From assembly GCA_963702215.1 (NCBI GenBank), contig OY969726.1:1681533-1745532 (forward strand): a stretch of 64,000 nucleotides of DNA. Direction: 5' to 3'. Below the pieces are notes generated by a model. The model was not told the DNA's origin. It was given only the letters and a program-made list of their open reading frames with translations, and searched no databases. Made by a program: the position numbers and the translations under genes. Positions within the stretch are counted from its first letter, which is position 1. Every line of letters begins with the position of its first letter. Positions 1,294 to 22,980 of this stretch are shown piece after piece. The DNA is from an uncultured Bacteroidota bacterium. Lineage in GTDB: Bacteria; Bacteroidota; Ignavibacteria; Palsa-1295.

Positions 1294-1464
1294 GAGCGAT
1301 TTTAGAGCCGATTCATGAAGCAATTTCAAAAAGTGGCGATTTGAGACGATTCGGATAGTTTTCTATGAATTATGAACTCACACACACAACAAAAGTAGCT
1401 ACCTCGCTTTTCTTAAAGGCAGCATTGATTCATGGATGAGTTCCCAACACCGGCAACAAAAGTG

Positions 1465-2535: not shown

Positions 2536-2595
2536 TTCGGCGGGCTAAACGCGGAGAGCGGAAAGAATGTCCCACGATGCGACAAAGATTACCTC

Positions 2596-5442: not shown

Positions 5443-6007
5443 TATCGCGATCGGTAATCAGCGGCGTTCCCACTCCGGTTGCGGAGGCGCCGGCCTCGAA
5501 CCACTCTCCGACGTTTTCGACGGTCACGCCGTTGGTTGGAACGAAACGAATATCCGGGAACGGGCCGCGCAGCGCGCGGATGTATTGCGGGCCGAGCCCG
5601 GCGAGCGGAAAGAGTTTCACGAAATCGGAACCGGCGGCGGATGCCTGCCATGCTTCGGTCGGAGTGAGCGCGCCGGCCATCGAAGCAACATCGGCGGCAT
5701 CGGCCACGGCGAGCATATCAAGATCGGTAACGGGGCTAACAAGAAACTTCGCGCCGCTTTCAACAGCTTTCGTTGCCGCTTCTACGCCGATTACGGTTCC
5801 GGCGCCGACGAGCACCGCGGGAAAATCCTTTGCGATGCGATGGATCGCTTCACTGGCGGCGCGCGAGTTCATCGTGATCTCGATCGTTTTGATCCCGCCG
5901 CGCAGCAACGCTTCAATCACCAGTTCGATCTTCTCGGTTCGTTTCAATCGCAGCACGGCGAAGACGCGCTCCTCCAGAATTCGCTGAATGGTAGTCTCTT
6001 TCTTCAT
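5372..6007 (-). CDS. eda: 2-dehydro-3-deoxyphosphogluconate / 4-hydroxy-2-oxoglutarate aldolase
   Basis: 211 aa KDPG-aldolase fold (..VLRLK.., GAGTV.., FVSP.., KLFPA..). Confidence 0.85.
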   Translation of the reverse strand: MKKETTIQRILEERVFAVLRLKRTEKIELVIEALLRGGIKTIEITMNSRAASEAIHRIAKDFPAVLVGAGTVIGVEAATKAVESGAKFLVSPVTDLDMLAVADAADVASMAGALTPTEAWQASAAGSDFVKLFPLAGLGPQYIRALRGPFPDIRFVPTNGVTVENVGEWFEAGASATGVGTPLITDRDIEAGDFSVIENRARQIVSNARKK

Positions 6008-6015
6008 AGAAGGGA

Positions 6016-6675
6016 TTAGAACGTTTCGAATTTCGAAAATAGCTCCCGGGCTTCACGCCCTGCAGCAAGGCCGGCCGCGGTTTTGTGTTCGCCTTCGATG
6101 GATTTCATCAGCTCCGCATAAATCATTTCAAAATGTACGCTCGGAATGACGATGACTCCATTCGCGTCTCCAAAAATAATATCGTTCGGCTTGATGGTTA
6201 CACCGCCGATTTGGAGGGTGGTATTATATTCCGCCATATATCCGCGTCGCCGGATATCCTTGATGCACCGGTACGCCCCGAAAACCGGGAACCCCAAATT
6301 CGCGATTTGCTCGAAATCTCGGATGCCGCCATTTACAAGTGCACCGACTGCGCCACGCGCCTTCGCCCGTGTGGACATGAGGCCGCCCCAGAGCGCTGCA
6401 TCGATATCGCGATCGGCAGCGACCGCAACAAATGCATTGGCTGAGATAGAATCCACCATTTCGAGGAGTCTGTCGATTTCGACGTACTCTGTCGTGGGCA
6501 CAACCCGGCATGGGAACGCCCGTCCCACCACTTTTAAGCTGGGATCGAAAGGAACGGATTGAATCTCTCGCGGCAAGACATGCGATGGAATTCCGAGGCG
6601 GTCCATCACATCCGAAACGAGCGGAGTAAAAAAATGCTCGAAGCTGCCGAGTTCGACTGGATTAGAAATAGGCAT
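6016..6675 (-). CDS. RraA-family protein (putative class II 4-hydroxy-2-oxoacid aldolase / RraA-like)
   Basis: RraA / dimethylmenaquinone-MTase-like fold (…GGLMSTRAKARGAVGALVNGGIRD…). The start was chosen at ATG 6675..6673, which gives a TGATG overlap with the kduI stop (translational coupling). The longer ORF to 6741 is less likely. Confidence 0.7.
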   Translation of the reverse strand: MPISNPVELGSFEHFFTPLVSDVMDRLGIPSHVLPREIQSVPFDPSLKVVGRAFPCRVVPTTEYVEIDRLLEMVDSISANAFVAVAADRDIDAALWGGLMSTRAKARGAVGALVNGGIRDFEQIANLGFPVFGAYRCIKDIRRRGYMAEYNTTLQIGGVTIKPNDIIFGDANGVIVIPSVHFEMIYAELMKSIEGEHKTAAGLAAGREARELFSKFETF

Positions 6676-7523
6676 CAGCGGAGACCAGTGGGCATCTGTT
6701 CGAAACCAGTCTGCACATTCACGCCTGCAAGCGTGCGCCACGTGTCATCTTCGAGCGAACAAAGCACCCAGCAGAAGTTAATCGGGTAGCCCGGCGCGGC
6801 GACGTTGGGGTGGTAACCTTTTACGATTGTAACGGCATCGTCCTCATACACGGGCTGGACAAATTCCGGGTGTTCCAAATCCGAATAAATAAATTGCGTT
6901 CCGAATCCTGGACGCGGCATATCGAAGAAAAGATAGAGTTCCTCCCGCGTTGCGGCATGTTCGTGCGGTGGCCAACTCGTCCAGTTGCCGGGCTTTGACA
7001 TCGTGGTGCCCATTAGAAGCCGCGAACCTTCCACATTCTCGGCGAGCACTTTGTAAATATCGCGGTAATATGGTTCGTGCCCGACGCGGAGCGTGAGCGC
7101 ATCATTGCTTTTCACCTCACTCTCGAAGTTCACATAATCGGTTGGATGGGACCGATCAGTTGGAGCGGAGGCTTCCACGAGGTCCAGAAAGTCCTCAGTT
7201 GCGATTCTAAACGCCTCGCCGCGCCGAACATAGACCCCATCGAACCTTTGAAGCTCGAATGTTTCCGTTCCCACCTGCACACGCCCGGTTCCGTGCAGGC
7301 AGAAGAGCATCGTCTCGCGGCCCGCGTTTTGGCCAGACGCATTGGGAACGGATTTATCGAGAATGATTCGCCCGGCACGGATCGCTTTGAATGCGGAGTT
7401 CTCCGGTGTAATAGAAATATTACGGCCCTTTTTGGCGGCCGTGTTGCGAAAAAGCCACCCCTGATTTTCCTGATTCATGTAATAACGATTGATTGGATTT
7501 CTAACATCTTTATTGGTAAACAA
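6675..7523 (-). CDS. kduI: 5-dehydro-4-deoxy-D-glucuronate isomerase
   Basis: 282 aa. The N-terminal 'DVR...' and the cupin motifs align with KduI (…WPPHEH…, …GYHPNVAAPGY…). Confidence 0.85.
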   Translation of the reverse strand: MFTNKDVRNPINRYYMNQENQGWLFRNTAAKKGRNISITPENSAFKAIRAGRIILDKSVPNASGQNAGRETMLFCLHGTGRVQVGTETFELQRFDGVYVRRGEAFRIATEDFLDLVEASAPTDRSHPTDYVNFESEVKSNDALTLRVGHEPYYRDIYKVLAENVEGSRLLMGTTMSKPGNWTSWPPHEHAATREELYLFFDMPRPGFGTQFIYSDLEHPEFVQPVYEDDAVTIVKGYHPNVAAPGYPINFCWVLCSLEDDTWRTLAGVNVQTGFEQMPTGLR

Positions 7524-7563
7524 TCATCCGAATCAAAGCAATCACATAAATCATAGTTCAGGA

Positions 7564-8346
7564 TTAATAGGCCAGCCACCCCCCATCGACTACGAGCACG
7601 TGCCCGCTCACGTAATCCGAAGCGGCGGAGGCAAGATACAGAATCGCTCCCTGTATATCTTCCGGCTCGCCCCAGCGCCCGGCGGGAATACGGGAAAGAA
7701 TTTGCTCTTTGCGCTTGGTGTCCGCACGAAGCGCGGCCGTCGCATTCGTTTCGATGTATCCGGGGGCAATGGCATTCACTTGCACTCCATATTTTGCCCA
7801 TTCGTTCGATAGCGCTTTCGTTAGCTGCGCGACGCCGCCTTTCGCCGCCGTATAAGCTGCAACATTCACCCCTCCCTGGAACGAAAGCAGAGAAGCCATA
7901 TTGATGATCTTTCCGCTGCCTTGCTCGATCATCACTTTGCCCACGGCTTGCGCCCAACTAAAAACGGCGTTCAAGTTCGTATCGATCACGTCATACCAAT
8001 CGTGTGCGGTGAAATCGGTGGCTGGTGCGCGGCGAATGATTCCGGCGTTATTCAGAAGAATGTCTATCGTTCGGAATCGCTGAAGCGTCGTGGAGATAAC
8101 CTCCATCATCTTCGCCGGGTCTTTGACATCGGCAACCGCAATGATGGACTGCTCACTCTGCTTTGTCCGATTAGCATCGATGGATTGCTTCACCTCGTTC
8201 AGCGCCGCCTCTTCGCGTCCGACGAGCACGACGTTTGCACCAGACGCGGCCAACGCGAGCGCGCCGGCGCGCCCGAGCCCGCGCGAACCGCCAGTGACGA
8301 TTGCGGTTTTGCCGTCTAAAGAAAATAGCGATTCGAGGAATGACAT
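7564..8346 (-). CDS. kduD: 2-dehydro-3-deoxy-D-gluconate 5-dehydrogenase (SDR)
   Basis: 260 aa SDR with TGGSRGLG, NNAG and YxxxK motifs. It sits in the kdu context. Confidence 0.85.
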   Translation of the reverse strand: MSFLESLFSLDGKTAIVTGGSRGLGRAGALALAASGANVVLVGREEAALNEVKQSIDANRTKQSEQSIIAVADVKDPAKMMEVISTTLQRFRTIDILLNNAGIIRRAPATDFTAHDWYDVIDTNLNAVFSWAQAVGKVMIEQGSGKIINMASLLSFQGGVNVAAYTAAKGGVAQLTKALSNEWAKYGVQVNAIAPGYIETNATAALRADTKRKEQILSRIPAGRWGEPEDIQGAILYLASAASDYVSGHVLVVDGGWLAY

Positions 8347-10401: not shown

Positions 10402-12027
10402 ATGCTCAGGCTTCGGCTCACCATATGGTACTCCGTGCTGGTCGTGCTCACGATTGGCGCAATTGGACTGTTCCAATATTACAAAATCCGGCAGTCACTC
10501 TTCCAGGCACTGGATGCCTCCCTTATAGACGATGCGAAAATTACGCTGACCCTCATCGCTACGCTTCCGCCGGAAGCCAATCCGCAGATGATCGTCCAAC
10601 ACGGCGAGGCCCATGAAGCCAATTCGCTCCGGGATTTGATTGACCAGGCGCTGCGCCGAGTTCCCGATACGCTGAAAGGACCCGCACTGGCGGACCGCGT
10701 CGTCAACGAGATCATTGATCAGGTCATAACAGAACTTTCCTTTGTCGATTCGACGGGCAAAACGGTCGATCCGCTCGACGCCATCGTCGAGCGGTCGGTT
10801 TCCAGCCGACGAAATAATCTCGTCGAAATCTATGCAATCGCGGAGGATAGCACGGGCCGGCGGCACGAGGAATCCTTCTTCCGAACGCCCAATCTTGGAT
10901 CCGATACGCTGATGCGGCTGGTGCGCGGCGCGCATTTGCACACCGAGTCCGATACAACGTCGGCCTATCATACAGTCACGATTCGGAAGGAGCACGTGCG
11001 TGTCGCTCGGGCGCATAACGCCCGATTCGATGTATATGTGGGCTATCCGGTGACGGATATCGAGCAGAGCCTTCGAAGCGTCCGATCCTCGTTCTATATC
11101 GGTATTCCGCTGGCGCTGGCGATTTCGATTTTCGGCGGACTCTGGTTCGCCCGAAAGGCTCTCAAGCCGATGGAGCGGATCGCCGATCAGGCTCGGGAGA
11201 TTACCGCGAAGAATCTTTCACAGCGCATCGATCTCCCCGGCAAAACGGACCGGGAACTCGTCCAACTCATCGGCACGCTGAATCTCATGTTCACCCGCCT
11301 CGAAAGTTCCTTCCAGCAGGTCACACAATTTACTTCCGACGCATCGCACGAGCTGAAAACGCCGCTCGCGATTATGAAGGGCGAAATAGAGCAGGCCGAA
11401 CGCCATCTGGATGCCGCGCAAGCTTTGGAACCCGAAGAATCCAGGGAAGTCCTGGCAAGCATTATGGAGGAAGTTGATCGAATGCAGCGCATTGTCGAAG
11501 GCCTGCTCATGCTTTCCCGCGCGGACGACCGCCGTTTGCCGCTTGCCAAGGAAACGATCAAGATTTACGATTATTTAAATTCCCTCTGCGAAGACGCCGA
11601 GATCCTGGCTGAAGAACGCGGCCTCACCCTTCGCGGCCGTCTCGATGAGCACGCTAAGTCGAAAGAGGTTTCGGCCGATGCCACGCGCTTATACCAGGTA
11701 GTAATGAATCTGGTCGATAACGCGCTCAAATATACGCCGGCCGGTGGCAAGGTTACGCTGTTCCTGAATGGCGAGGGCCATCAAGTCCACTTCGGCGTGT
11801 CCGATACCGGCATTGGGATTGCGAAGGAAGAGTTACCAAAAGTCTTCCGAAGATTTTACCGAACCGATGAAGCCCGGACCGGCCCCCACGGCGATGGCGA
11901 ACGTTCTCTTGGCCTCGGGCTCGCCATCGTCAAATCCATCGTCGAAGCCCACGGCGGAACAATCGGCGTCGAAAGCGAGCTCGGCCGCGGTACCCGATTT
12001 ACGATCACGATGCCGTCGATGAATTAG
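10402..12027 (+). CDS. sensor histidine kinase (two TM segments, HAMP, HisKA and HATPase_c domains)
   Basis: H-box SHELKTPLA; N, G1 and G2 boxes (LVDNALKYT, SDTGIGI, GLGLAIVK). No response-regulator gene is adjacent. Confidence 0.85.
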   Translation: MLRLRLTIWYSVLVVLTIGAIGLFQYYKIRQSLFQALDASLIDDAKITLTLIATLPPEANPQMIVQHGEAHEANSLRDLIDQALRRVPDTLKGPALADRVVNEIIDQVITELSFVDSTGKTVDPLDAIVERSVSSRRNNLVEIYAIAEDSTGRRHEESFFRTPNLGSDTLMRLVRGAHLHTESDTTSAYHTVTIRKEHVRVARAHNARFDVYVGYPVTDIEQSLRSVRSSFYIGIPLALAISIFGGLWFARKALKPMERIADQAREITAKNLSQRIDLPGKTDRELVQLIGTLNLMFTRLESSFQQVTQFTSDASHELKTPLAIMKGEIEQAERHLDAAQALEPEESREVLASIMEEVDRMQRIVEGLLMLSRADDRRLPLAKETIKIYDYLNSLCEDAEILAEERGLTLRGRLDEHAKSKEVSADATRLYQVVMNLVDNALKYTPAGGKVTLFLNGEGHQVHFGVSDTGIGIAKEELPKVFRRFYRTDEARTGPHGDGERSLGLGLAIVKSIVEAHGGTIGVESELGRGTRFTITMPSMN

Positions 12028-12070: not shown

Positions 12071-12280
12071 GGTTTAAGACTCGGAAAAACAGGAATTCCT
12101 CGTGCGCGGTAATAGTTAGCCGATGCAGAGAACGCTTCTGCACCAAAGACCCACGCAATCACTTACGTTTTTTTGCATGATTCTTTTTATAGTACTTCCG
12201 TGTTAAACCGGGCAACCGTGGGAACCTCGGATGATTCATCATCCCGTTCCCGCGTATTCGAAGCAGCTTTTACCTTCGCG

Positions 12281-12688
12281 ATGAGCGGCGCACTTCTTCT
12301 GGCGTCTGCTTCACTCATGAGTCATTCGTTAGCGGCACGTCCGCGTCAGGGTCCGCCGATTCCGGGAGCGGTGGTGGTTTCGGGAACGTTTGTTGTTCCC
12401 GATCAGCATCGCGGCCCCGCGCCGAGGATTGTTCATGTCGATCCGCGGCCATTCACTCCGGTCTCGGCACCGGCGGTCTCGGGGCCGGGTGTCGCCAGGC
12501 CGGCGGTTTCCGCCCCGATAGTTTCATCGCCTGGGGTTCCAGTCGAGCGTATGGAGCCATTGCGGATCGATCCGGCGGAGCGTCAGCAAATCGTGGCGCG
12601 CCATGCCGATGAGATGAAGCGCGAGCATTGCCTTCGCAAGCTCGAAGCACGCCAGCGGGCACTGCGCGAGCGTAACGCAAACCATTGA
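12281..12688 (+). CDS. secreted proline/valine-rich hypothetical protein
   Basis: The signal-peptide-like 'MSGALLLASASLMSHSLAARP' is followed by low-complexity PV-rich sequence. The ORF could begin at 12173. Confidence 0.3.
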   Translation: MSGALLLASASLMSHSLAARPRQGPPIPGAVVVSGTFVVPDQHRGPAPRIVHVDPRPFTPVSAPAVSGPGVARPAVSAPIVSSPGVPVERMEPLRIDPAERQQIVARHADEMKREHCLRKLEARQRALRERNANH

Positions 12689-12977: not shown

Positions 12978-13135
12978 TACGTGGCGAATCTGTAATGGAG
13001 ATGAGCAATCGCTTCGGTCAACACGGAAGAGTAATTTGCCGCAACCATTTGGCAAGCGCGGGCGTGGCTCTAGGAGTCACCGCGGGCCATGAAGCATCTC
13101 GGCAGCGGGCTTACCGCGGAAAATGGTTGTAGCCT

Positions 13136-13531
13136 TCACGAGTCGAAAAGCAGGCGCGAAAAACGATTGCGCCGCCGGTAGGGCGCCCTTCGGAAACGCA
13201 CTTCCCTACCCGAGAGAAGCTGGAATTCCCGCTGCATCCGAAGCCGCTCTGCGAAGGACCATTCCGCCTCCGGCTCGAAACGCACGCTAAGATGCGGATC
13301 GGCCGCCGGCAAATCCACTGTCTGGTCACGATCGAGCGATAGCTCATCCACGCGCCAGCGGCGGCAAAATTCTGATATATTTTCGGCTGTAAGGTCGAGT
13401 TCGGATTGCATGGATTCCATTATGTAAAATCGGATTTCAGACCGTTGAAAAAATAGATTGGAAAAATGCCCTAACGCCTTCGGAATGGCCACGCAATTCT
13501 GCAAGAATACGTGGGCAAATGCAGTGAGCAA
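13136..13531 (-). CDS. hypothetical protein (the start is probably the internal MESMQ at 13420)
   Basis: ORF only, with no recognisable motif. Confidence 0.3.
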   Translation of the reverse strand: MLTAFAHVFLQNCVAIPKALGHFSNLFFQRSEIRFYIMESMQSELDLTAENISEFCRRWRVDELSLDRDQTVDLPAADPHLSVRFEPEAEWSFAERLRMQREFQLLSGREVRFRRAPYRRRNRFSRLLFDS

Positions 13532-13547
13532 TTTCTATTCCGTTCGA

Positions 13548-13739
13548 TTATGGGATGTTCACACCTCGTTTTTCGAGGGCGCGGCGTGTTCGATTCTCTC
13601 GGTACTGCCGCCCAATCTTTTCCCAGATGGCGGTCATCCAAATGATGCCGACGAACGTAATGACGAGAAGGCCGGCTGCGAAAACGATCAGGAATATCAG
13701 AATTTCTCGTGCTATCATACCCTCCTTCCCAACCAACAT
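13548..13739 (-). CDS. small single-TM hypothetical protein
   Basis: 63 aa with one hydrophobic helix and a basic C-terminal tail. Confidence 0.3.
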   Translation of the reverse strand: MLVGKEGMIAREILIFLIVFAAGLLVITFVGIIWMTAIWEKIGRQYRENRTRRALEKRGVNIP

Positions 13740-13897
13740 TAGCCCGACGAGCTGGCTTTTCCTGGAAAGAAAGCGTTGGCTGAGAAAGAAGTAAGATTGC
13801 CGGAATGGCCTAAAGAGCTTCTTTTTAGAATGACGAAAACATAATTAAATCGAGAGTGGAACGGAAGGTCAGATCCATCAGTTATAACTTATACATT

Positions 13898-14284
13898 ATG
13901 AGTCGTCCGTTTGCAACACCGAGTATTTACATGGCTATCGCGGATCCGAACCGGCGGGTCCTGCTCGATCTGCTGGCGAGTGGGGAACAGCCCGTTCGCG
14001 AGCTCCATGCGCGCGTCCGGCTGTCGCAGCCGGCGCTGTCGCAGCATTTGAAAGTCCTGCGCGATGTGGGCCTGGTGCGCCAACGCCGCGCGGGACGCGA
14101 ACGAATTTATGCACTCAATCCGAAGCCGCTCAAGGAAATATCGGACTGGGTGAAACACTATGAAGCATTTTGGGAACAAAAACTCGCCGCGCTGGGAGAG
14201 CACCTCGATCGCGCGGCGGGCAGGAGAGGGCATGCAATGAGCAATCATTCCATGAGCGATCCTGCTTCGAGATCGAAGAAATAA
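13898..14284 (+). CDS. ArsR/SmtB family transcriptional regulator
   Basis: HTH region 'RRVLLDLLASGEQPVRELHARVRLSQPALSQHLKVLRDVGLV'. The start was chosen at MSRP; the ORF extends to 13856. Confidence 0.8.
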   Translation: MSRPFATPSIYMAIADPNRRVLLDLLASGEQPVRELHARVRLSQPALSQHLKVLRDVGLVRQRRAGRERIYALNPKPLKEISDWVKHYEAFWEQKLAALGEHLDRAAGRRGHAMSNHSMSDPASRSKK

Positions 14285-14315
14285 CGATCATTTTCACACA
14301 AACCAAAGTCACAAT

Positions 14316-14807
14316 ATGCAAGAGAAGACTACCATTGAAAAACACCAAAACTTAGGAGTTCTCACGGCAAGGCAAAAAGATCTCATATACAGCATCAAAG
14401 CCGGCATAACTCCCGCGGAAGCAACCGAAAAAATCAGCCGCGTCTCCGAATGGTGGGGAAGAAATATCGAGGGCATCTCTCGGAAGCAGGGAGATGTTTT
14501 TACCTATCATGCCGGCAACACTTGGGTCACCTTTAAAATAGCGGAAGTCATACCAGATAAAAAAATTGTGTGGCATGTTACGGATTGCAATCTGCACTGG
14601 ATCCATGACAAAAAAGAATGGAAGGACACTAGCATCGTCTGGGATATCGCCGGCAACGGCGAGGTAACGCAAATCCATTTCACACACCTGGGCTTAGTTC
14701 CAGGAATGGAATGCTACAACGACTGCGAAAAAGGCTGGAGCGATTACATTCAACAAAGCCTCTTTCAATTTCTTACGAAGGACAAAGGGCTTCCAGATAA
14801 ATTTTAA
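14316..14807 (+). CDS. SRPBCC superfamily protein (AHSA1/Aha1-like domain)
   Basis: 163 aa. ArsR regulators are typically followed by SRPBCC genes, and this one has a conserved core. Confidence 0.7.
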   Translation: MQEKTTIEKHQNLGVLTARQKDLIYSIKAGITPAEATEKISRVSEWWGRNIEGISRKQGDVFTYHAGNTWVTFKIAEVIPDKKIVWHVTDCNLHWIHDKKEWKDTSIVWDIAGNGEVTQIHFTHLGLVPGMECYNDCEKGWSDYIQQSLFQFLTKDKGLPDKF

Positions 14808-14840
14808 CATCCGCTCATTTATTTAAAACCAAAATACACT

Positions 14841-15293
14841 ATGCAAGAAACGATTACGATAGAAAAACAATATCCATACAGCGTGGACGAAGTTTGGAAC
14901 GCGCTTACGGATGCCGAGTCGCTCGGCGAATGGCTTATGAAGAATAACTTCGAGCCACGCATCGGACACGTCTTCCAATTTAGCTACGTCATGGACGGCA
15001 AACGGGTCATCATCGACTGCAAAGTCCTGGAAGTGAAGCGACCGAGCAAGCTTTCCTATACCTGGACGTTGGATCCCATTCAGAAGGCGGGGGCTGATCT
15101 GGGCGGAGCCGATACCATTGTCACCTGGTCGCTCGAAGCAGCGAGCGGTGGGACGAAGCTTCTCCTCGAACATTCCGGCTTTGACAGCGAGAAGGATGAG
15201 CAAATCTTTAACGCGCTCTCCGGCGGCTGGAAGCAAAAACTCGACGAAGTGCTTCCGGCGTCCATCGAAAAACGACAGAGCGTTGCTGCGTAA
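14841..15293 (+). CDS. SRPBCC superfamily protein (AHSA1/Aha1-like domain)
   Basis: 150 aa with 'YSVDEVWNALTDAESLGEWLM...', the canonical Aha1-domain N-terminus. Confidence 0.75.
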   Translation: MQETITIEKQYPYSVDEVWNALTDAESLGEWLMKNNFEPRIGHVFQFSYVMDGKRVIIDCKVLEVKRPSKLSYTWTLDPIQKAGADLGGADTIVTWSLEAASGGTKLLLEHSGFDSEKDEQIFNALSGGWKQKLDEVLPASIEKRQSVAA

Positions 15294-15368
15294 TTCAGGA
15301 CAGGAATCGCGAATGACAACGGGGTAGCCTTGGCTCGTTTGTAGAATCGCGAATGTAATGGGAATTTT

Positions 15369-15421
15369 AAGCTCCGTTAGGAGCGGCCCTCGGTCGCTCC
15401 CAACGGAGCTTTATTTTTTTG
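15369..15421 (+). terminator. rho-independent terminator
   Basis: AAGCTCCGTT-(inner GGAGCG..CGCTCC hairpin)-AACGGAGCTT followed by TATTTTTTT. It lies 75 nt after the SRPBCC stop. Confidence 0.6.
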
Positions 15422-15522
15422 TCTTCTTGGTTCTGCAATCGAGCTGGCTCTGACGGAGCTATCATCCGACACGAATTGGAAAGAATCGGTGAGTTTTCCA
15501 TGATTCGGTTGTTATTGAAAAT

Positions 15523-16944
15523 ATGAAGTATCCTTCAATCCTGCTTCTCTGCCTTGTACCGATATCGGCAACGGCCAAAACCTGGCTCGTCGGCCCCACG
15601 CATCCAAACACCGCACCGAGCGCGGTCGCCTCGCTCGTCTCCGATGGCGATACCGTGCTCATCGACTCCGGCCTGTACATTGGCGATGTGGCCACGTGGT
15701 CGAAAAGCAATCTGGTTTTGCGATGTCCGGATGGCATGGCGCGGTTCGATGCTGCGGGAAACATCGCGGACACGAAGGGCATTTGGGTGATGTACGGGAA
15801 TAATACCTACGTGGAAGGCTTCGAATTTTACGGCGCGGCGATTTCTTTCAACGATGGCAATAACGGTGCGGGCATCCGCGTGCAGGGCGATGGCTTTACG
15901 TGCCGCCGCTGCTACTTTCATAGCAATCAGGAAGGCATTCTGACCGGCAACGATACGGCGAACGACAACATACTAATCGAATCCTGCATCTTCGATTCTA
16001 ATGGCGTCGAGGGAACGGAGAATGGCGGTTGGCAGCATAATATCTACATCGGTGAATCGAGCAGCTGCACGATAGAGTTCTGCTATTTCCATCACGCAAT
16101 GGTGGGACACGAGCTGAAATGCCGCGCGAACCGAAGCTATATTCTCTATAATTATATTGTCGATGGGCCGGTGAGCGATGCGAGCCTTTCGATCGATATT
16201 CCGCAGGGCGGCCTTGCCATTGTGATGGGCAATATTATCGAAAAAGGACCGATGACGGAAAATTCCACCGTCATCGGATATGGCGAAGAGGGATTTAAAA
16301 ATCCCGACACGGATTTTTATTTCGTCTATAATACTATTGTGACTGATCGCAATCCGACAACCTTATTTGAAATAGCAACAGGAACGAAGATCGCATACGT
16401 CTCGAATAATATTTTTGCAGGCACTACGCATCCCATCGTCGGTTTTACGGATACCGGCAGAAACGTAATGAGTACTGACACGGCGTTCTTCCATTTTGCC
16501 GATCCACTGAATTACGATTATCATTTCAGGTCCTTCCCCGGTTTCGATAGGGCCTCGAACCCGATCAACGTGGACGGATTTACACTTGCACCCATCTGGG
16601 AATACGCCGATCCTGAAGATAGCACGCCGAGAAATAATTATTATGAAATTGGTGCCTTTGAAGATAAGTTTGCGCTTTCAGTCGCTCCACAAGTAACGTA
16701 TCCTGAAATAACAAACTATCCAAATCCTTTCAGTTCCCAAACAACGATTTCCTTGCCCAACGGCATTTCTGGTTCCCTCCAGTTATCCAACGAATGTGGA
16801 AACCGAATAGAGGCTGCAACGCATCCGGATCAGAACGGCCTCGTCTTCGAGCGCGGGAATTTGCCGGCGGGAATTTATTTTTATCGCATTACTGCCGCCG
16901 ACGGCAAAGAACAGTTCGGCGGTAACTTTGTGATTGCACCCTGA
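15523..16944 (+). CDS. secreted right-handed parallel beta-helix (pectate-lyase-like fold) protein with a T9SS C-terminal sorting domain
   Basis: Signal peptide, PbH1-type repeats (NIYIG…, CYFH…) and a C-terminal 'NYPNPFSSQTTISL…GIYFYRI' module typical of Por/T9SS CTDs. Confidence 0.75.
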   Translation: MKYPSILLLCLVPISATAKTWLVGPTHPNTAPSAVASLVSDGDTVLIDSGLYIGDVATWSKSNLVLRCPDGMARFDAAGNIADTKGIWVMYGNNTYVEGFEFYGAAISFNDGNNGAGIRVQGDGFTCRRCYFHSNQEGILTGNDTANDNILIESCIFDSNGVEGTENGGWQHNIYIGESSSCTIEFCYFHHAMVGHELKCRANRSYILYNYIVDGPVSDASLSIDIPQGGLAIVMGNIIEKGPMTENSTVIGYGEEGFKNPDTDFYFVYNTIVTDRNPTTLFEIATGTKIAYVSNNIFAGTTHPIVGFTDTGRNVMSTDTAFFHFADPLNYDYHFRSFPGFDRASNPINVDGFTLAPIWEYADPEDSTPRNNYYEIGAFEDKFALSVAPQVTYPEITNYPNPFSSQTTISLPNGISGSLQLSNECGNRIEAATHPDQNGLVFERGNLPAGIYFYRITAADGKEQFGGNFVIAP

Positions 16945-16962
16945 ACCAAACCGGATTCATCG

Positions 16963-18393
16963 ATGAAGGCCACCCTTATTTTTTTTCTTCTCCTTTCGCC
17001 GCTTCCGTCCTCGGCCAAAACGTGGCTCGTCGGCGCAACGCGGCAATACAAAGTTCCGAGCGCCGTCGCTTCGCTTGTTTCGAATGGGGATACCGTGCTC
17101 GTCGATTCCGGCTCGTACACGGGCGATGTGAGTGTTTGGAACGCGAGCAATCTCGTCCTTCGCTGCCCCGATGGCATGGCGCGCTTCGATGCAAACGGCA
17201 ACATCGCACAGCAGAAGGGAATTTTTGTTATTTACGGCGATAACGATTACATGGAAGGCTTCAAACTCTTCGGCGCAGCGATTTCCGAAGCCAACGGCGA
17301 TAATGGCGCGGGCATTCGCATGCAGGGCCACGGCTTCACCGTACGCCGATGCTATATCCACGATAACCAGGATGGTATCCTTACCGGCATCGGCAGCGAC
17401 ACTACCAACAATATCCTGATCGAGGCGTGCGAATTTTATCATAATGGTGTTGAATCGGGTTCCGCGGCCGGGTACGAGCATAATATCTATATCGGCCATT
17501 GTGCAAGCCTGACGGTGAAATTCTGCTATTTCCACGGCTCGGTGCAAGGGCACGAACTCAAGACGCGCGCCAGCAGGAATTATATTCTCTATAACAAAAT
17601 CGTGGACGGGCAAACCGGCGATGGAAGCTTTTCGATCGATATTCCGAATGGCGGCTTAAGCTATGTGATTGGGAACGCAATCGAGAAGGGGCCGATGAAT
17701 GTGAATCATACGGTTACAATTGATTATGGTGGAGAAGGCATAATCAATGGCGATTCGGAATTCTATTTCGTGAACAACACGGTAGTGACGGACCGAGCGG
17801 CTACTACGCTTTTTCATCTTCAACCGGGAGCTACTGCGCTCATCGCCAACAATATTTTCGCGGGACAGATAAGCGGCTTCGCGAATTCCGATGCAACTAC
17901 GCCTGATACGGAGGCGAACGTCGAATCGCTGGATACGGCGTTCTTCCATTTTCGCAATGTGATTGGTTATGATTACTATCCGGTATCGAATTTCCCTGGA
18001 CTTCGGAGCGCCATTTTAATGGCGACCAATGGCGTGTTACCCGTACCACTGGTAGAATATGTCGATCCGCTCGATAGCGCCGCTCGGCCGTGGGAGAATC
18101 AGGTGGGTGCATTCAATGAAATCGGGGGCGCCGGTGTTGCAAATATCGTTCCCTCCTGTCCGCAACTGGCAAATTATCCAAATCCCTTCTCGCGCGAAAC
18201 GACGCTCGAAGGCCCTTCCGGGCGGCTCGCCCTGTTCGATGCCTCCGGCAACCGGCAAACAATCGCGTATCATCAAACGCAGGACGGGCTTGTTCTCGAG
18301 CGCGGCAGTCTGCCTGCCGGCATTTATTTCTACGGCATTACTTCGCTTTCCGGCGGCACGATTGCCAAGGGTTCGCTGGTTATCCGCAATTGA
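16963..18393 (+). CDS. paralogous secreted beta-helix protein with a T9SS C-terminal sorting domain
   Basis: ~55-60% identical to the preceding gene by eye along the whole length, with the same N-terminus (AKTWLVG…VASLVS.GDTVL.DSG.Y) and CTD (NYPNPFSRETTL…GIYFYGI). Confidence 0.75.
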   Translation: MKATLIFFLLLSPLPSSAKTWLVGATRQYKVPSAVASLVSNGDTVLVDSGSYTGDVSVWNASNLVLRCPDGMARFDANGNIAQQKGIFVIYGDNDYMEGFKLFGAAISEANGDNGAGIRMQGHGFTVRRCYIHDNQDGILTGIGSDTTNNILIEACEFYHNGVESGSAAGYEHNIYIGHCASLTVKFCYFHGSVQGHELKTRASRNYILYNKIVDGQTGDGSFSIDIPNGGLSYVIGNAIEKGPMNVNHTVTIDYGGEGIINGDSEFYFVNNTVVTDRAATTLFHLQPGATALIANNIFAGQISGFANSDATTPDTEANVESLDTAFFHFRNVIGYDYYPVSNFPGLRSAILMATNGVLPVPLVEYVDPLDSAARPWENQVGAFNEIGGAGVANIVPSCPQLANYPNPFSRETTLEGPSGRLALFDASGNRQTIAYHQTQDGLVLERGSLPAGIYFYGITSLSGGTIAKGSLVIRN

Positions 18394-19259
18394 TGCGGAA
18401 GACTGTCCTCGTTCTCGCTGTACTCCCCATCGCGGTTACCCTCACGCGCGCACAGCCGGCGCGGACGGATTCCGCGACCGTGCTCGGTGTTGCTGCAGCT
18501 TCGCTAATTCCGGCATCGCTCATTTCGGCGATTATCGTTTTGAATCAGGAAGCGTTTTGGAAATACGCGAGAGAAGTTCCGTTCCACGTTTCGAACGATC
18601 CGCCCTATGCAATGCACATCGATAAGTTCTCACATTTCTACGGGTCGATGGCGGGCTCCTCGCTCATGAGTTATGGATATGAGCGGGCGGGACTCTCGCA
18701 GCAAACATCCGTTTGGCTTGGCGCCGGTCTTACCTTTGCGGCAGGATTTGCCATCGAAATGGAGGATGCCCGGCACGGCGACGATCCGGAATACGGCTTC
18801 TCTCCGGGCGATCTTGGCGGCGATATTCTCGGCTCATCGCTTCCGATCCTGCGATACTATTTCCCCGTTGTGGAACGGTTCCAGGCCAAGCTGAGCATTT
18901 GGCCCTCGGAAGCCTACAAAACCGGGGTTTATAAATCTATTACGGACGATTACGAGAGCCAGTATTACTGGCTCTGCTTCGATCTCCATGGCTGGACGCC
19001 GTTGCCTCCGTGGCTTAACGTCGCCTTCGGCTTCAGCGCGGAGAATTTACTCAGGCCATCGAATGGACTTGGCTACCAGTTGCCGCCGCCCACGGGAATT
19101 CCTTACACCGATGTTTATTTCGGGCCGGATATAAATTTAAGAGGCATTCCGATCCGTGGGTGGTTCTGGGATGGGCTGACGAGTGTGCTCGCGTATGTTC
19201 GCATCCCACTTCCGGCGCTTCAGTTTTATCCGAGAATGAAATTTTGGTGGCTGCGATAA
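18390..19259 (+). CDS. secreted/membrane-associated hypothetical protein, DUF2279-like
   Basis: Signal peptide. The start has an ATGA overlap with the upstream beta-helix gene. The DUF2279 assignment rests on memory of 'DKFSHFYGS…' and is tentative. Confidence 0.45.
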   Translation: MMRKTVLVLAVLPIAVTLTRAQPARTDSATVLGVAAASLIPASLISAIIVLNQEAFWKYAREVPFHVSNDPPYAMHIDKFSHFYGSMAGSSLMSYGYERAGLSQQTSVWLGAGLTFAAGFAIEMEDARHGDDPEYGFSPGDLGGDILGSSLPILRYYFPVVERFQAKLSIWPSEAYKTGVYKSITDDYESQYYWLCFDLHGWTPLPPWLNVAFGFSAENLLRPSNGLGYQLPPPTGIPYTDVYFGPDINLRGIPIRGWFWDGLTSVLAYVRIPLPALQFYPRMKFWWLR

Positions 19260-19275
19260 TGTATTCAGCGGTGGA

Positions 19276-20034
19276 ATGGTAAAAAAAATCAAAGCGCCCA
19301 TCGTGAAACTGGCCGGCGCCGGCAGCGAGAACCTGGGCTGGCGCGGCGTCGAAATTCCCTTCGATGTCAAGAAGGCATTCGGCAAAAGTGGGCGCGTCCC
19401 GGTGCGCGGCGAAGTAAATGGATTCCCGCTGCGCACCTCACTATTTCCGCGCAAAGGCGAGCCGCATTTTCTTATGCTGAACAAACAAGTCCAGAAGGGC
19501 GCTGGGCTTTCCGAGCTTGGGCAAATCGTTTCCATCGAACTGGAACTGGATACGGAGGAACGAACCGTAGAGACGCCGCGAATCCTCGCAGAAATATTGG
19601 AGGATGAGGACGGCCTTCTCGAGTATTTTGAATCTTTCACCTATTCGACGCGCAAATTCATGGCGGATTCTATCTCGAACACTAAAAGCCCTGGGGCACA
19701 ACACCGGCGCGCCGAGCGAATCGCGATGATCCTCATGGAAATGCGCGATGGAGAAGCCCATCCACCGCCGATTTTGGAAGTGGAGTTCGCGAACAACCCG
19801 AAAGCGCGGAGCGGGTGGAAACGCATGTCCGTCGCACAACGCCGGGGACATTTGTGGGGAATTTTCTATTATCAAACCCCGGAATCGCGCGCGCGCCGGG
19901 GGAAGCAGGCGATTCAGGATATGGTAAAACATGCAGAATCAGATGCAACTCGAAGCAAGAAGCCTTTGTCGAACATCGGTAACGTCATTCCCGCGAAGGC
20001 GGGAATCGAGGCCCGGGGCCGAAAGGTGGAATGA
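19276..20034 (+). CDS. DUF1905 plus YdeI/OmpD-associated (bacteriocin-protection-like) domain protein
   Basis: N-terminal DUF1905-like beta region (GRVPVRGEVNGFPLRTSLFP) and a C-terminal YdeI-like helical region. Confidence 0.6.
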   Translation: MVKKIKAPIVKLAGAGSENLGWRGVEIPFDVKKAFGKSGRVPVRGEVNGFPLRTSLFPRKGEPHFLMLNKQVQKGAGLSELGQIVSIELELDTEERTVETPRILAEILEDEDGLLEYFESFTYSTRKFMADSISNTKSPGAQHRRAERIAMILMEMRDGEAHPPPILEVEFANNPKARSGWKRMSVAQRRGHLWGIFYYQTPESRARRGKQAIQDMVKHAESDATRSKKPLSNIGNVIPAKAGIEARGRKVE

Positions 20035-20093
20035 GGGATCTGGATTCCCGCATTCGCGGGAATGACATCGAGAGCACTTTTTCATACAGCCAG

Positions 20094-20804
20094 ATGATCA
20101 GAACTCTGAAATCCAAACTGCTTCTCGCTCAGCGCCAGCTTCTCCACCGGCTCTATATCAGCCGCGGCCGGGAGCGCACCGTGCTCGACGAGTTCCATAA
20201 GCTCTATTACTACTCGAACAATGCCGGCAAAACGTGGAGCGACACGTGGTGGCAGGGAACTCAAGTCCTGAAATGCCCGCTCGATCTTTGGATCTATCAG
20301 GAAATTATTTTCCGAACGAAGCCGGACCTCATTATCGAGACGGGAACCTACAAAGGCGGCACGGCGCATTTCTTCGCTTCGATGTGCGATTTGAATGAGC
20401 GCGGTGAAGTGATAACAATCGACATCGAGGAGTATCCCGGCAGGTCAACGCATCCGCGCATTACCTATTTGCATGGTTCCTCGACGGATGAAGCCATCGT
20501 TCACGGCGTCAGTTCGAAGGCCAAAGGAAAAGATTCCATTCTTGTCATACTCGATTCCGATCACAGCATGGCTCACGTTCGGCGGGAGTTGGAACTATAT
20601 GCGCCGCACGTGACCGCCGGGAATTATGTGATTGCCGAAGATACGAATATCAACGGCAACCCGGTGCTTCCCGAATCCGGCCCTGGCCCGAACGAAGCAA
20701 TTATCGATTTTTTGCGAACGCACAAAGAGTTCGAAGTCGATCGCTCAATGGAAAAGCTGCTGATGACATTCAATCCGGGGGGGTATTTAAAGAAAATTCG
20801 CTGA
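20094..20804 (+). CDS. CmcI-family (cephalosporin hydroxylase / rhamnosyl O-methyltransferase-like) class I SAM methyltransferase
   Basis: '…WQGTQVLKCPLDLWIYQEII…PDLIIETGTYKGGTAHFFA…' is the CmcI signature. The start was chosen at MIRTLKS; the ORF to 20031 overlaps the upstream gene. Confidence 0.7.
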   Translation: MIRTLKSKLLLAQRQLLHRLYISRGRERTVLDEFHKLYYYSNNAGKTWSDTWWQGTQVLKCPLDLWIYQEIIFRTKPDLIIETGTYKGGTAHFFASMCDLNERGEVITIDIEEYPGRSTHPRITYLHGSSTDEAIVHGVSSKAKGKDSILVILDSDHSMAHVRRELELYAPHVTAGNYVIAEDTNINGNPVLPESGPGPNEAIIDFLRTHKEFEVDRSMEKLLMTFNPGGYLKKIR

Positions 20805-20846
20805 CACGGAACTTGCTTTTCAGGAGTTGGGTTAGGAAGAAATACT

Positions 20847-20918
20847 ATGCGACGGAATTTTTCTCAGCCGGCATCGTTCGCGATGCATCATCATCATCAT
20901 CCAACACGCGGCTGGTGA
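20847..20918 (+). CDS. his operon leader peptide (23 aa, five consecutive His codons)
   Basis: SD AGGAAG, then ATG CGA CGG AAT TTT TCT CAG CCG GCA TCG TTC GCG ATG CAT CAT CAT CAT CAT CCA ACA CGC GGC TGG TGA. It lies 117 nt upstream of hisG and was absent from the ORF track because it is under 60 aa. Confidence 0.6.
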   Translation: MRRNFSQPASFAMHHHHHPTRGW

Positions 20919-20947
20919 TGGCTGAACTTATTCCATAAGTTTTTTCA

Positions 20948-20980
20948 AGCGCCGGCCAATGTGCCGGCGCTGCTGTTTCT
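20948..20980 (+). terminator. attenuator terminator of the his leader
   Basis: AGCGCCGGC-CAATGT-GCCGGCGCT (9-bp GC stem) followed by GCTGTTTCT. An upstream complementary pair, TCAGCCG…CGGCTGG, brackets the His codons and is a candidate pause/anti-terminator hairpin. Confidence 0.55.
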
Positions 20981-21034
20981 AATCGGTTTTTCGCAGCTTT
21001 GGTACATGGTCCCGGCCTCATTTAGAAGCTGCAA

Positions 21035-21919
21035 ATGACGATACAATCGAATTTATCAGACATAACCACCGACGCGATTCGCCTGGCGCTGCCGAAAGGC
21101 CGCATGCAGGAGGGAGTCTTGCGCCTGTTGGGCGATGCGGGCATCCGGGTTCACCAGGGAAGCCGCGGATACCGGCCAAGCATTTCGCTGGCCGGGTTCG
21201 AGGTTAAGATTCTCAAGCCGCAAAACATCGTAGAGATGCTGCACTTTGGCTCGCGCGATCTTGGTTTCGCCGGAGCCGATTGGGTTGCCGAGCTGGACGG
21301 CGAGCTTATGGAATTGCTGGATACAGGTCTCGATCCCGTATCGCTCGTTGCAGCAATGCCGCGTAGTGCGGACTTTCAGTCCGCGAATCCGCCGCTGGTT
21401 ATTGCCTCCGAATACCGGAACTTAACGGAACGATGGATCGCCGAATCCGGTATGCAAGCGACCTGCATTCGTTCCTATGGCGCGACCGAAGTGTTCCCGC
21501 CGGAAGATGCGGATTGCATTGTCGATATTACCGCAACGGGTGCGACCCTCCGGGCGAACGGCCTCGAAATTGTTGCAACACTGCTTGAATCTTCAACGCG
21601 CCTGTATTGCAATCCGCGTGCGCTCGACGAGCCCGGGAAGCGCGACTCGATCGAAAGCTTTACGCTTTTATTACGGTCGGTTCTGGATGCTCGCGACCGC
21701 GTGATGCTGGAATTGAATGTAACCGGCGAATCTCTCGAAGGCATCGTCCACCTGTTGCCGGCCATGCGCGAGGCCACGATCGCCACGCTCCATGGCAATC
21801 GCGGCTACGCCGTAAAAGCCGCCGTATGCCGAACATTGCTACCCACGCTCATCCCGCAACTCAAACGTGCGGGCGGAAGCGATATTATCATTTCGTCGCC
21901 GAGCCAAATCGTACCATGA
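21035..21919 (+). CDS. hisG: ATP phosphoribosyltransferase (long form with a C-terminal regulatory domain)
   Basis: 294 aa with a HisG catalytic core and a C-terminal ACT-like extension. Confidence 0.9.
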   Translation: MTIQSNLSDITTDAIRLALPKGRMQEGVLRLLGDAGIRVHQGSRGYRPSISLAGFEVKILKPQNIVEMLHFGSRDLGFAGADWVAELDGELMELLDTGLDPVSLVAAMPRSADFQSANPPLVIASEYRNLTERWIAESGMQATCIRSYGATEVFPPEDADCIVDITATGATLRANGLEIVATLLESSTRLYCNPRALDEPGKRDSIESFTLLLRSVLDARDRVMLELNVTGESLEGIVHLLPAMREATIATLHGNRGYAVKAAVCRTLLPTLIPQLKRAGGSDIIISSPSQIVP

Positions 21920-22980
21920 GCGTTGTGGAACAACTTATTCGAACGTCGATTCGCGCTTACCAAGCGGCACCGAAGGATCCCGCAATCGAGCTTGCGCTCG
22001 ACCGCACGGAGCCCCCAATTCCGTATCGCGCGATGAGCGGAAATTATTATTCATCGCCAACCTTCTGGTCACGCTATCCTTCGCCGCGTCCGCTCGAAGC
22101 CCAGCTTGCTCGCCGCCATAATATCCAACCCGAGAACGTTATCGTTACCGCCGGCGCGGACGAAGCGCTCGACCGGGCATGCCGCGCAGCGCTAACGAGC
22201 GGGAATGAATTGCTCACAACCACTCCTGCCTTCGAAATGATCGCAAAATACGCTTGCCTTGCCGCTGCGGAGATCGCGGACGTTCCATGGCTGGGTGGAG
22301 AATTCCCGATTGCGGATTTTCTCGATCGAATTTCATCGAAGACGCGACTTATTATTTTGGTCAGCCCGAATAATCCAACCGGGCAATCAATTCCATCCGG
22401 CATGCTCGAACGGATCGCACGGGAAAGCCCAAATATTCTTATCGTGGTCGATCTCGCATATGTCGAATTTGCCGAGATCGACCCTACGCTTGAACTTTCA
22501 CAGTTCCCAAATATTGTAATCGTTCGCAGTTTTTCGAAAGCATGGGGCTTGCCGGGGCTTAGGCTTGGCTATGCGCTCGGCGATAAGGAAGTCATTCAGG
22601 CGATGCGCGCGGCGGGAGGGCCTTATTCTGTCGCCGCTGGCTCGATGGAACTTCTTAGCAATCGTCTCGAACAATTCGAGGGCGAAATGCTCACGTACGT
22701 CGCGCGAATCAAACGGGAGCGAGCCATCACCGAGGAATGGTTGCGATCCAAGGCCATTTCGTTCATTCCTTCCCAATCAAATTTTATTCTGCTCTTCCCC
22801 GAAGATTCATCGAACTTTGATGAATTGTTCCGCTCATCCGGAATTGGAGCACGCTCCTTTGAATCTTCCGCTAACATTTCGGGAGCACGGCGGGTAACGT
22901 TACCCGGCAATACCGAGGCATTTGCACGGCTCCTATTCGCGCTGGAAACCTTCTTTCAATCACAATCTCTCGAATCATGA
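21916..22980 (+). CDS. hisC: histidinol-phosphate aminotransferase
   Basis: Start MSVVEQL at 21916, with an ATGA overlap on the hisG stop. PLP-lysine region '…IVRSFSKAWGLPGLRLGY…'. The upstream part of ORF 21607.. is an out-of-frame overlap of hisG. Confidence 0.85.
   Translation: MSVVEQLIRTSIRAYQAAPKDPAIELALDRTEPPIPYRAMSGNYYSSPTFWSRYPSPRPLEAQLARRHNIQPENVIVTAGADEALDRACRAALTSGNELLTTTPAFEMIAKYACLAAAEIADVPWLGGEFPIADFLDRISSKTRLIILVSPNNPTGQSIPSGMLERIARESPNILIVVDLAYVEFAEIDPTLELSQFPNIVIVRSFSKAWGLPGLRLGYALGDKEVIQAMRAAGGPYSVAAGSMELLSNRLEQFEGEMLTYVARIKRERAITEEWLRSKAISFIPSQSNFILLFPEDSSNFDELFRSSGIGARSFESSANISGARRVTLPGNTEAFARLLFALETFFQSQSLES

Follow-up and report, generated by a model that had tools for sequence, protein, structure and literature searches.

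A cluster of five genes in the genome of an uncultured Bacteroidota bacterium raises the question of whether its two secreted beta-helix proteins digest pectin or act on glycans that the cell makes itself. The cluster (genes G1 to G5) lies in a window of 64,000 nucleotides, which is the whole stretch of DNA analysed here (contig OY969726.1, positions 1,681,533 to 1,745,532). We found five co-oriented open reading frames (ORFs) on the + strand. The coordinates and domain calls given in an earlier note on this DNA held for all of them: two paralogous beta-helix proteins with domains of the type IX secretion system (T9SS) (G1 and G2), a DUF2279-like protein (G3), a DUF1905/YdeI protein (G4) and a CmcI methyltransferase (G5). 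The same note had taken the five genes as one operon and G1 and G2 as secreted pectate/alginate-type lyases. It seemed to us more likely that the cluster processes the cell's own surface polysaccharide rather than digesting pectin, because the partner of the beta-helix genes is a YfiM-like enzyme of lipid-linked glycans and because homologues in other phyla occur in exopolysaccharide (EPS) loci. That a secreted glycan-active enzyme is functionally paired here with a protein of the lipocone superfamily (G3), and that G4 and G5 are a separate module, has in our judgement about an even chance of being right.

Architecture of the beta-helix proteins

G1 consists of a signal peptide (residues 1-18), a right-handed beta-helix (about residues 20-320, 8-9 coils), a linker and a T9SS type A C-terminal domain (residues 399-473). 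Both N termini read as Sec signal-peptide-like sequences, MKYPSILLLCLVPISATA/KTW in G1 (...SATA/KTW) and MKATLIFFLLLSPLPSSA/KTW in G2 (...PSSA/KTW). An AlphaFold2 model of G1, built from a 52-sequence alignment, reached a pLDDT of 88.5 and had a helix at residues 2-11 and 8-9 three-strand coils forming a right-handed beta-helix. The T9SS type A model TIGR04183 recognized both proteins (30.6 bits for G1 and 24.8 bits for G2; cut-off 23), and the scores for Pfam PF18962 were below its cut-off of 27 (25.2 and 16.6, respectively). The modelled C-terminal domain of G1, a beta-sandwich, matched the T9SS substrate domain 8glk_D in Foldseek (TMt 0.73). A profile of the helix family also matched 8glk_D and 8glj_D in the PDB (E = 1e-5). 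Sequence, AlphaFold2 model and TIGR04183 agree in this respect with the earlier description of two paralogues of about 475 residues with a common signal peptide, beta-helix core and T9SS C-terminal domain. The ORFs scanned in the window included no T9SS component genes.

The family is large. With the core of the protein (residues 20-385) as query, we obtained 3,732 representatives of 50%-identity clusters at E ≤ 1e-3 and 1,045 at E ≤ 1e-30. Its members are fused to Kelch propellers (recurrently), Calx-beta, fn3, PKD, FlgD_ig and T9SS C-terminal domains, and one homologue carries three CBM60 modules. Close G1 orthologues at four related loci (L003-L005 and L090) are about 680 residues long and have an extra domain of about 200 residues, which follows the beta-helix and precedes the T9SS domain. 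In some orthologues this extra domain has precomputed hits to PF15780 (ASH) and PF22544, and the window copies have no such domain.

Fold matches and the conserved groove

The best PDB match of the G1 model in Foldseek was Pel9A, a pectate lyase of polysaccharide lyase (PL) family PL9 (1ru4; E = 2.6e-5, TM-scores 0.48/0.56). Further matches were the group of PL6 alginate lyases and chondroitinase B (among them 8bwk and 5gkq) and RbmB (9ozd), the Vibrio polysaccharide (VPS) lyase. Pectin methylesterases, tailspikes and AlgE6 ranked below the lyases. The identity of G1 to these structural matches was 10-14%. At the level of sequence models, no PL-family Pfam model matched G1 at E ≤ 1, and the only Pfam match of G1 was its C-terminal domain. 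G2 had only sub-threshold matches to Pect-lyase_RHGA_epim (E = 0.011) and NosD. Similarly, none of the 52 homologues matched PL or other specific CAZy-type Pfam models at E ≤ 0.01, save for two weak RHGA_epim hits. The generic Beta_helix model (PF13229) recognized 16 of the 52, but neither G1 nor G2. A PDB sequence search with G1 as the only query yielded no meaningful match, and a profile search gave only T9SS C-terminal domains and one pectate lyase at E = 0.024. Thus, the structure comparison that the earlier note had called for did recover the PL9, PL6 and RbmB folds, but with weak TM-scores and with no PL sequence model behind them.

Across the 52 homologues (about 40% identity), 89 positions of the core were at least 90% conserved. 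Conserved polar residues were found on parallel beta-sheet 1 (PB1) of successive coils (K85, W88, N114, R119, H172, N173, Y175, H196, K199, R201, S221, N247 and Y253), and E256 is conserved just past PB1 of coil 7. Two further conserved residues, H133 and H190, are on PB3, as is an Asn ladder. Both G1 and G2 retain the conserved polar residues. Judging from the model, they would line an uninterrupted groove that is basic and aromatic and has few carboxylates. Such a groove would fit the binding of an anionic glycan and proton abstraction, as in a lyase or an epimerase, and appears unlike that of a two-carboxylate glycoside hydrolase or a plain adhesin. By eye, neither the GH28-type motifs (NTD, DD, GHG, RIK) nor the DPHD motif of AlgG was present among the invariant residues.

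Because PL9, PL6 and RbmB are the top fold matches and the Lys/Arg/His/Tyr groove is invariant, we favoured a lyase-like role as the best single guess for G1 and G2. In this sense, the lyase half of the earlier claim survives on fold and groove, but the specificity for pectin or alginate is not supported, as no PL model was matched and the identity was only 10-14%. With regard to the residues suggested for inspection, a basic Lys/Arg groove with a putative base is conserved, and no conserved Ca-type acidic cluster is evident. We propose K199, R201, H196, H172 and Y175 as the candidate active site. In RbmB the general base is a lysine, K227 (PMC12993940), and PL6 enzymes likewise rely on a Lys base within this type of fold. 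A large helix family with a definable candidate active site, without a match to the PL or CAZy-type models tested, is new.

The known relatives of the fold can be compared with G1 and G2 as follows. PL9 Pel9A (1ru4), the PL6 alginate lyases and chondroitinase B (8bwk, 5gkq, 7o78, 1ofm) are secreted right-handed parallel beta-helices that act on acidic polysaccharides, where a Lys or Arg on the face of the helix serves as base, and they gave the best Foldseek matches (E = 2.6e-5 to 5e-3). They differ in that G1 shares only 11-14% identity with them at TM-scores of 0.3-0.56, matches no PL model, has no evident conserved Ca-binding Asp/Glu cluster and has no conserved linkage to pectin genes. RbmB of Vibrio cholerae (9ozd/9ozl) also matches G1 in fold (TMt 0.41-0.49). 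It is a lyase that acts, with K227 as general base, on the VPS matrix polysaccharide of its own producer (PMC12993940). It has no sequence similarity to G1 or G2, and lacks both the T9SS domain and a lipocone partner. RbmB is the best functional counterpart for the proposal that G1 and G2 act on the cell's own glycans.

A YfiM-DUF2279 lipocone protein next to G2

The score of G3 for Pfam DUF2279 (PF10043) was just under the cut-off (27.1 bits against 28.6). Despite this sub-threshold score, the earlier assignment of G3 as DUF2279-like was confirmed by hhalign: a G3 profile of 41 sequences aligned with YfiM of E. coli (yfiM of MG1655) with a probability of 92.9% (E = 3.7e-7). In this alignment, H81, E122, D140 and D144 of G3 coincide with the catalytic residues H31, E72, D87 and D91 of YfiM, so that all four reported catalytic residues are kept. 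H81, E122 and D140 were invariant in the 41 G3 homologues and D144 was at least 90% conserved. We found 59 G3 homologues, almost all from Kapabacteria/Ignavibacteriota, and PF10043 was present on most of them.

YfiM has been reported as a lipid-linked oligosaccharide pyrophosphatase (bioRxiv 10.64898/2026.09.16.752124). DUF2279/YfiM has been placed in the lipocone superfamily, and the YfiM-DUF2279 family has been predicted to act on phosphoesters of lipid head groups in the outer membrane, with fusion or linkage to outer-membrane beta-barrels (PMC12419801). G3 differs from E. coli YfiM in its length (288 residues against 107), in a signal peptide without lipobox Cys and in an extra beta-rich C-terminal domain. 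An AlphaFold2 model of G3 (pLDDT 88.3) comprised a signal helix, a helical bundle (lipocone domain, about residues 30-160) and this C-terminal domain (about residues 163-285). With about 125 residues and about six strands, it is too short for a typical outer-membrane beta-barrel.

Two gene pairs side by side

The adjacency of a helix gene and a following DUF2279 gene was verified in nine loci, including the window (the others were L001, L002, L010, L081, L083, L086, L089 and L090), and the stop and start codons often overlapped or nearly did so. One Bacteroidia genome (L060) has a helix gene with 37% identity and, 1.3 kb upstream of it, a DUF2279 gene. The helix and DUF2279 genes occurred without YdeI or CmcI genes in L081, L083, L089 and L010, and YdeI and CmcI genes occurred without a helix gene in L085. 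In L003-L005 and L086, the YdeI and CmcI genes were separated by other genes. A CmcI gene stood alone in L084, elsewhere in the same genome as L002. The five-gene order was the same in L001 and variable in the other loci. As far as gene order can tell, the cluster is a composite of a tight helix-DUF2279 pair and a looser pair of YdeI and CmcI genes. The five-gene operon of the earlier note is better described as two separately conserved gene pairs placed side by side. The pairing of the helix with a YfiM-DUF2279 lipocone protein is new, in that the listed partners of this family (PMC12419801) include no beta-helix T9SS protein. New as well are the composite nature of the cluster and the probable distortion of two of its gene models by a palindrome (see below).

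An MsbA-like ABC exporter gene (ABC_membrane and ABC_tran) was downstream of the CmcI-like gene and convergent to it in L085 and L086, and a gene of the same family was upstream of the helix gene in L002. In L085, GT2 and GT9 (heptosyltransferase-type) genes come next. These neighbours hint that the CmcI-like enzyme might take part in the modification of lipopolysaccharide (LPS) or glycolipid.

Homologues in exopolysaccharide loci

Outside the Bacteroidota/Ignavibacteriota group, the helix occurred without a T9SS domain and in EPS or polyprenyl-glycan contexts. Two Methylophilaceae genomes had, in this order, genes for PrsK (TIGR02916, 895 bits), PrsR (TIGR02915, 748 bits), ElyC/DUF218, the helix and a polysaccharide deacetylase. 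Loci with PrsK and PrsR are associated with EPS (PMC1569441). In L071, the helix gene adjoined that of an exosortase-A-associated O-ligase (TIGR03097, 437 bits), and in L025 and L053 it adjoined WecB and AsnB-like amidotransferase genes. Two Acidobacteria genomes had a PMT_2 GT-C transferase gene directly upstream of it. Several hosts with such EPS contexts were methylotrophs or chemolithoautotrophs, from which foraging on polysaccharides would not be expected. These gene contexts may be taken as a pointer to the cell's own glycans rather than to dietary pectin, not as proof.

Self-made glycans or pectin

The analysis shows directly in what order the genes lie, which domains they encode, which residues are conserved and which neighbours recur; every activity, the substrate and any localisation beyond the sorting signals are our inference. 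G1 and G2 would be exported by Sec, handed to the T9SS via their C-terminal domains, and end at the cell surface or outside the cell. The PB1 groove would bind an acidic glycan and cleave it by beta-elimination, as a lyase does; the nearest alternative would be an epimerisation-like abstraction of the C5 proton. By analogy with PL6 enzymes and with K227 of RbmB, K199 would be the most likely base. G3 would be made in fixed proportion to G2 via translational coupling, and would most likely hydrolyse the (pyro)phosphate that joins a glycan to its lipid carrier or anchor; this glycan would be the same as, or related to, that of G1 and G2. Module A (G1, G2 and G3) would be the functional core, which trims, releases or recycles a self-made lipid-linked or surface polysaccharide (EPS, capsule or LPS-like glycan). 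Module B (G4 and G5) would be cytoplasmic, and its ties to module A are probably no more than loose; the target that G5 may O-methylate is a sugar or glycolipid. A tentative part of this proposal is that the substrate is a polysaccharide of the cell's own making. A bolder form of it seems unlikely to us: that helix and lipocone make up an undescribed two-enzyme outer-membrane system, in which cleavage of the chain and of the (pyro)phosphate at the lipid anchor releases or recycles surface glycan, and that the helix family, which also occurs in PEP-CTERM/exosortase EPS loci, is a new family of self-EPS lyases.

Several observations weigh against this proposal. The fold matches are weak (TM-scores of 0.3-0.56 and identities of 10-14%). 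The lysine was assigned as a putative base by its position and by analogy, and no PL1/PL9-type Ca-binding acidic cluster is conserved among the invariant residues. The G3 model, including its C-terminal domain, had no Foldseek match in the PDB below E = 0.3, and its membrane location is taken from the literature. The neighbourhood test (ORF clustering and Pfam on 142 flanking proteins) revealed no generally conserved neighbour of the helix family across 80 genome loci, but lineage-specific patterns only. The pairing of helix and DUF2279 genes occurs only in the Kapabacteria/Ignavibacteriota clade and in one Bacteroidia case, and inherited synteny could account for part of it; no helix neighbour was present next to DUF2279 homologues at ≤40% identity. 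The EPS contexts were found in only about 6-8 of the 80 loci, all outside the lineage of the window. Finally, the GH88/105-KduI-KduD-Eda pathway encoded nearby requires lyase products.

This last point leads to the nutritional alternative, in which G1 and G2 are secreted lyases of pectate, alginate or another uronan, and their unsaturated products feed GH88/105, KduI, KduD and Eda. The genes for these enzymes form a compact set for unsaturated-uronate catabolism 7-11 kb upstream of G1, so that the proximity of about 7 kb pointed out in the earlier note is real. The link itself did not hold up. The kdu genes are on the opposite strand, six unrelated genes intervene (a TauE exporter, a histidine kinase, an unknown ORF, ArsR and two SRPBCC genes), and no kdu/GH88 homologues were detected in the upstream flanks of L001-L005, where up to 8 kb was retrieved, which reaches only the distance of kduD in the window; of the five closest related loci, four gave no such homologue and the fifth (L010) had no upstream sequence. 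No polysaccharide lyase was identified among the ORFs scanned near the set. The PL9/PL6 fold matches and the basic groove suit a nutritional enzyme. In this bacterial group, polysaccharide degraders are commonly secreted through the T9SS. The CBM60 modules in one homologue and SusC/SusD-type neighbours in a few homologues point in the same direction. However, no PL-family model matched G1, G2 or the 52 homologues, and the unit itself contains neither a transporter nor a SusC/D pair nor any catabolic gene. The helix has an enzyme of lipid-linked glycans as its conserved partner, and homologues lie in EPS biosynthesis loci of methylotrophs and chemolithoautotrophs. Taken together, a nutritional role seems rather improbable.

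It is also conceivable that G1 and G2 tune a matrix polymer without cleaving it, as extracellular C5-epimerases like AlgE/AlgG or as CE8-like esterases. AlgE6 and pectin methylesterases were among the fold matches, and a polysaccharide deacetylase occurs in the EPS-locus contexts. Epimerases share the proton-abstraction chemistry of lyases with His, Tyr, Lys or Arg residues. Nevertheless, the invariant residues include no DPHD-type motif of AlgG/AlgE, the conserved groove lacks the paired Asp residues of CE8, and lyases rank higher in the fold matches. We therefore regard this possibility as quite unlikely. That G1 and G2 are instead T9SS-displayed adhesins or binding proteins that share no function with their neighbours is very unlikely: beta-helix adhesins exist, the Kelch, PKD, fn3 and Calx-beta fusions are also typical of surface proteins and there is no general neighbourhood conservation, but the fold matches are to lyases, with adhesin-type structures not among the best, invariant His/Lys/Arg/Tyr residues on one face across 52 sequences are more than binding alone usually needs, and the tight stop/start coupling to G3 is kept in several genomes; the adhesin without catalytic residues that the earlier note had named as its refutation is made very improbable by those lyase folds and that groove.

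If a role on the cell's own glycans is true, the candidate active site would be the first functional, testable handle on a large secreted beta-helix family that now matches only the generic Beta_helix model or nothing. The YfiM/DUF2279 lipocone enzymes, whose biochemical activity was only recently reported, would also gain a new partner in the genome and possibly a physiological setting. Some T9SS cargo of Kapabacteria/Ignavibacteriota would then serve the turnover of the producer's own envelope or matrix glycans instead of foraging. Each domain is of a known kind, so this is a lead for carbohydrate-enzyme and envelope biologists that overturns nothing.

Age of the G1/G2 duplication

G1 and G2 align end to end with 56% identity (E = 2e-174). 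A related Kapaibacterium genome (L001) holds both orthologues, which are 69% identical to G1 and 80% identical to G2, respectively, whereas each shares only 57% identity with its non-corresponding paralogue. Neighbour-joining placed the G2 clade (G2, L001b/P0026 and P0035) outside the whole G1 clade, which includes single-copy genomes. For these three reasons, the sequences place the duplication as old, and it cannot be the recent tandem duplication that had been assumed from the shared architecture.

G4, G5 and the palindrome between them

Both DUF1905 and OmdA domains of G4 were above the Pfam cut-offs. G5 matched RMNT_CmcI (PF04989) over profile positions 3-206 of 206 with 198.3 bits (cut-off 23.2). 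The earlier calls of a DUF1905/YdeI protein and a CmcI methyltransferase are thus correct. Like other DUF1905 and OmdA ("YdeI") proteins (2d9r for DUF1905), G4 has both domains, but the end of its tail in the window is read from a palindrome. G5 resembles the family of CmcI and rhamnosyl O-methyltransferases (PF04989; 2bm8) over its full length. However, it is below the rhamnosyl O-methyltransferase equivalog NF045824 of NCBIfam (150.6 bits against a cut-off of 400), and its similarity to CmcI itself was weak (E = 4.6e-4 over 53 residues). Its homologues include thousands named CmcI family or "cephalosporin hydroxylase". The score against the equivalog gives no support to the earlier suggestion that a CmcI-type O-methyltransferase points to sugar modification.

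The palindrome at the G4/G5 junction has 27-nucleotide arms that are 93% complementary, with a folding energy of -60.7 kcal/mol (z = -6.7). Each arm is itself a small hairpin (ATTCCCGC-N4-GCGGGAAT). No further copies were found within the window, and the palindrome is missing from the orthologous G4/G5 junction of L001. It encodes the last 17 or so residues of the non-conserved C-terminal tail of G4 (...VIPAKAGIEARGRKVE), and the first 12 or so residues of the listed G5 head (MRDLDSRIRGNDIES...) are largely read from it. In alignments with orthologues, the match to G4 ended at about residue 221 and that to G5 did not begin before residue 22. G5 orthologues measure 235-236 residues, and the deposited gene model in the window (P0180) measures 257. 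Because of this late onset of the match and the length of the orthologues, the overlap between G4 and G5 appears to be an artefact, and the true start of G5 is probably the ATG at 20094. The palindrome would then largely fill the space between the conserved coding regions, and the deposited gene models of both G4 and G5 are probably distorted by this repeat.

Gene layout and transcription

The coordinates of the cluster and of the features around it are collected in Table 1.

Table 1. Features of the five-gene cluster and its surroundings in the window
Feature	Position	Strand	Description
G1	15523..16944	+	473 aa; secreted beta-helix protein
G2	16963..18393	+	476 aa; G1 paralogue with the same architecture; all invariant family residues kept
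G3	18393..19259 (ATG 18393; listed start 18390)	+	288 aa; YfiM-DUF2279 lipocone protein
G4	19276..20034	+	DUF1905 + OmdA (YdeI-like); no signal peptide
G5	20094..20804 (probable start; listed ORF start 20031)	+	CmcI-family S-adenosylmethionine-dependent methyltransferase, probably 236 aa
Palindrome	19984..20066	no strand	83-nt composite, repetitive extragenic palindrome (REP)-like, at the G4/G5 junction
Intrinsic-terminator-like hairpin with T-run	15371..15421	+	CTCCGTTAGGAGC...GCTCCCAACGGAG then TTTATTTTTTT; ends the upstream ArsR/SRPBCC unit
GH88/105, eda (KDPG aldolase), RraA-like, kduI, kduD	4312-8346	minus	about 7.2 kb upstream of G1

G1 and G2 are separated by 18 nucleotides and G3 and G4 by 16, and G2 and G3 overlap by one nucleotide (-1) through a TGATG stop/start. 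The start of G3 is most likely ATG 18393, because the resulting 288 residues match the length of the homologues and because of this TGATG overlap with the G2 stop. The spacing given earlier is therefore right for the G2-G3 overlap and the 16 nucleotides between G3 and G4, but the overlap of G4 and G5 is an artefact of ORF calling over the palindrome. With regard to a single transcription unit, the genes lie on one strand with gaps of 18, -1 and 16 nucleotides, and the G4-G5 junction carries the palindrome of -60.7 kcal/mol. Genes of the cluster may be co-transcribed. The upstream hairpin marks the 5' boundary, and therefore the G1 promoter is expected in 15422-15522. An Rfam scan of 13000-22000 had a single match, PyrG_leader on this upstream terminator, which was at chance level and was discarded.

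Further upstream, the HAMP/HisKA histidine kinase (10402-12027) has counterparts with 77-78% identity upstream of the helix gene in L003 and L004. An unannotated ORF of 171 residues (12173-12688) has counterparts with 28-45% identity upstream of it in L001, L003 and L004. The ArsR gene and the two SRPBCC genes (13856-15293) appear to have been inserted between the kinase/171-residue ORF and G1. The histidine kinase is a possible regulator of the cluster. Elsewhere in the window, three long ORFs had no Pfam match at the thresholds used (1521 residues at 59380-63945 on the minus strand, 503 residues at 36659-38170 and 541 residues at 1432-3057).

Downstream of G5, a 9-bp GC-rich hairpin with a T-rich tail (20948-20971) was first assumed to be the terminator of the cluster. 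It lies just 5' of hisG (21035), and a short ORF at 20847-20918 (MRRNFSQPASFAMHHHHHPTRGW*) contains five His codons in a row. Rfam His_leader had no match at 20847-20971 at E ≤ 1. Judged by its sequence features, this segment looks like a leader-peptide attenuator of a his operon, which explains the hairpin better than a cluster terminator does.

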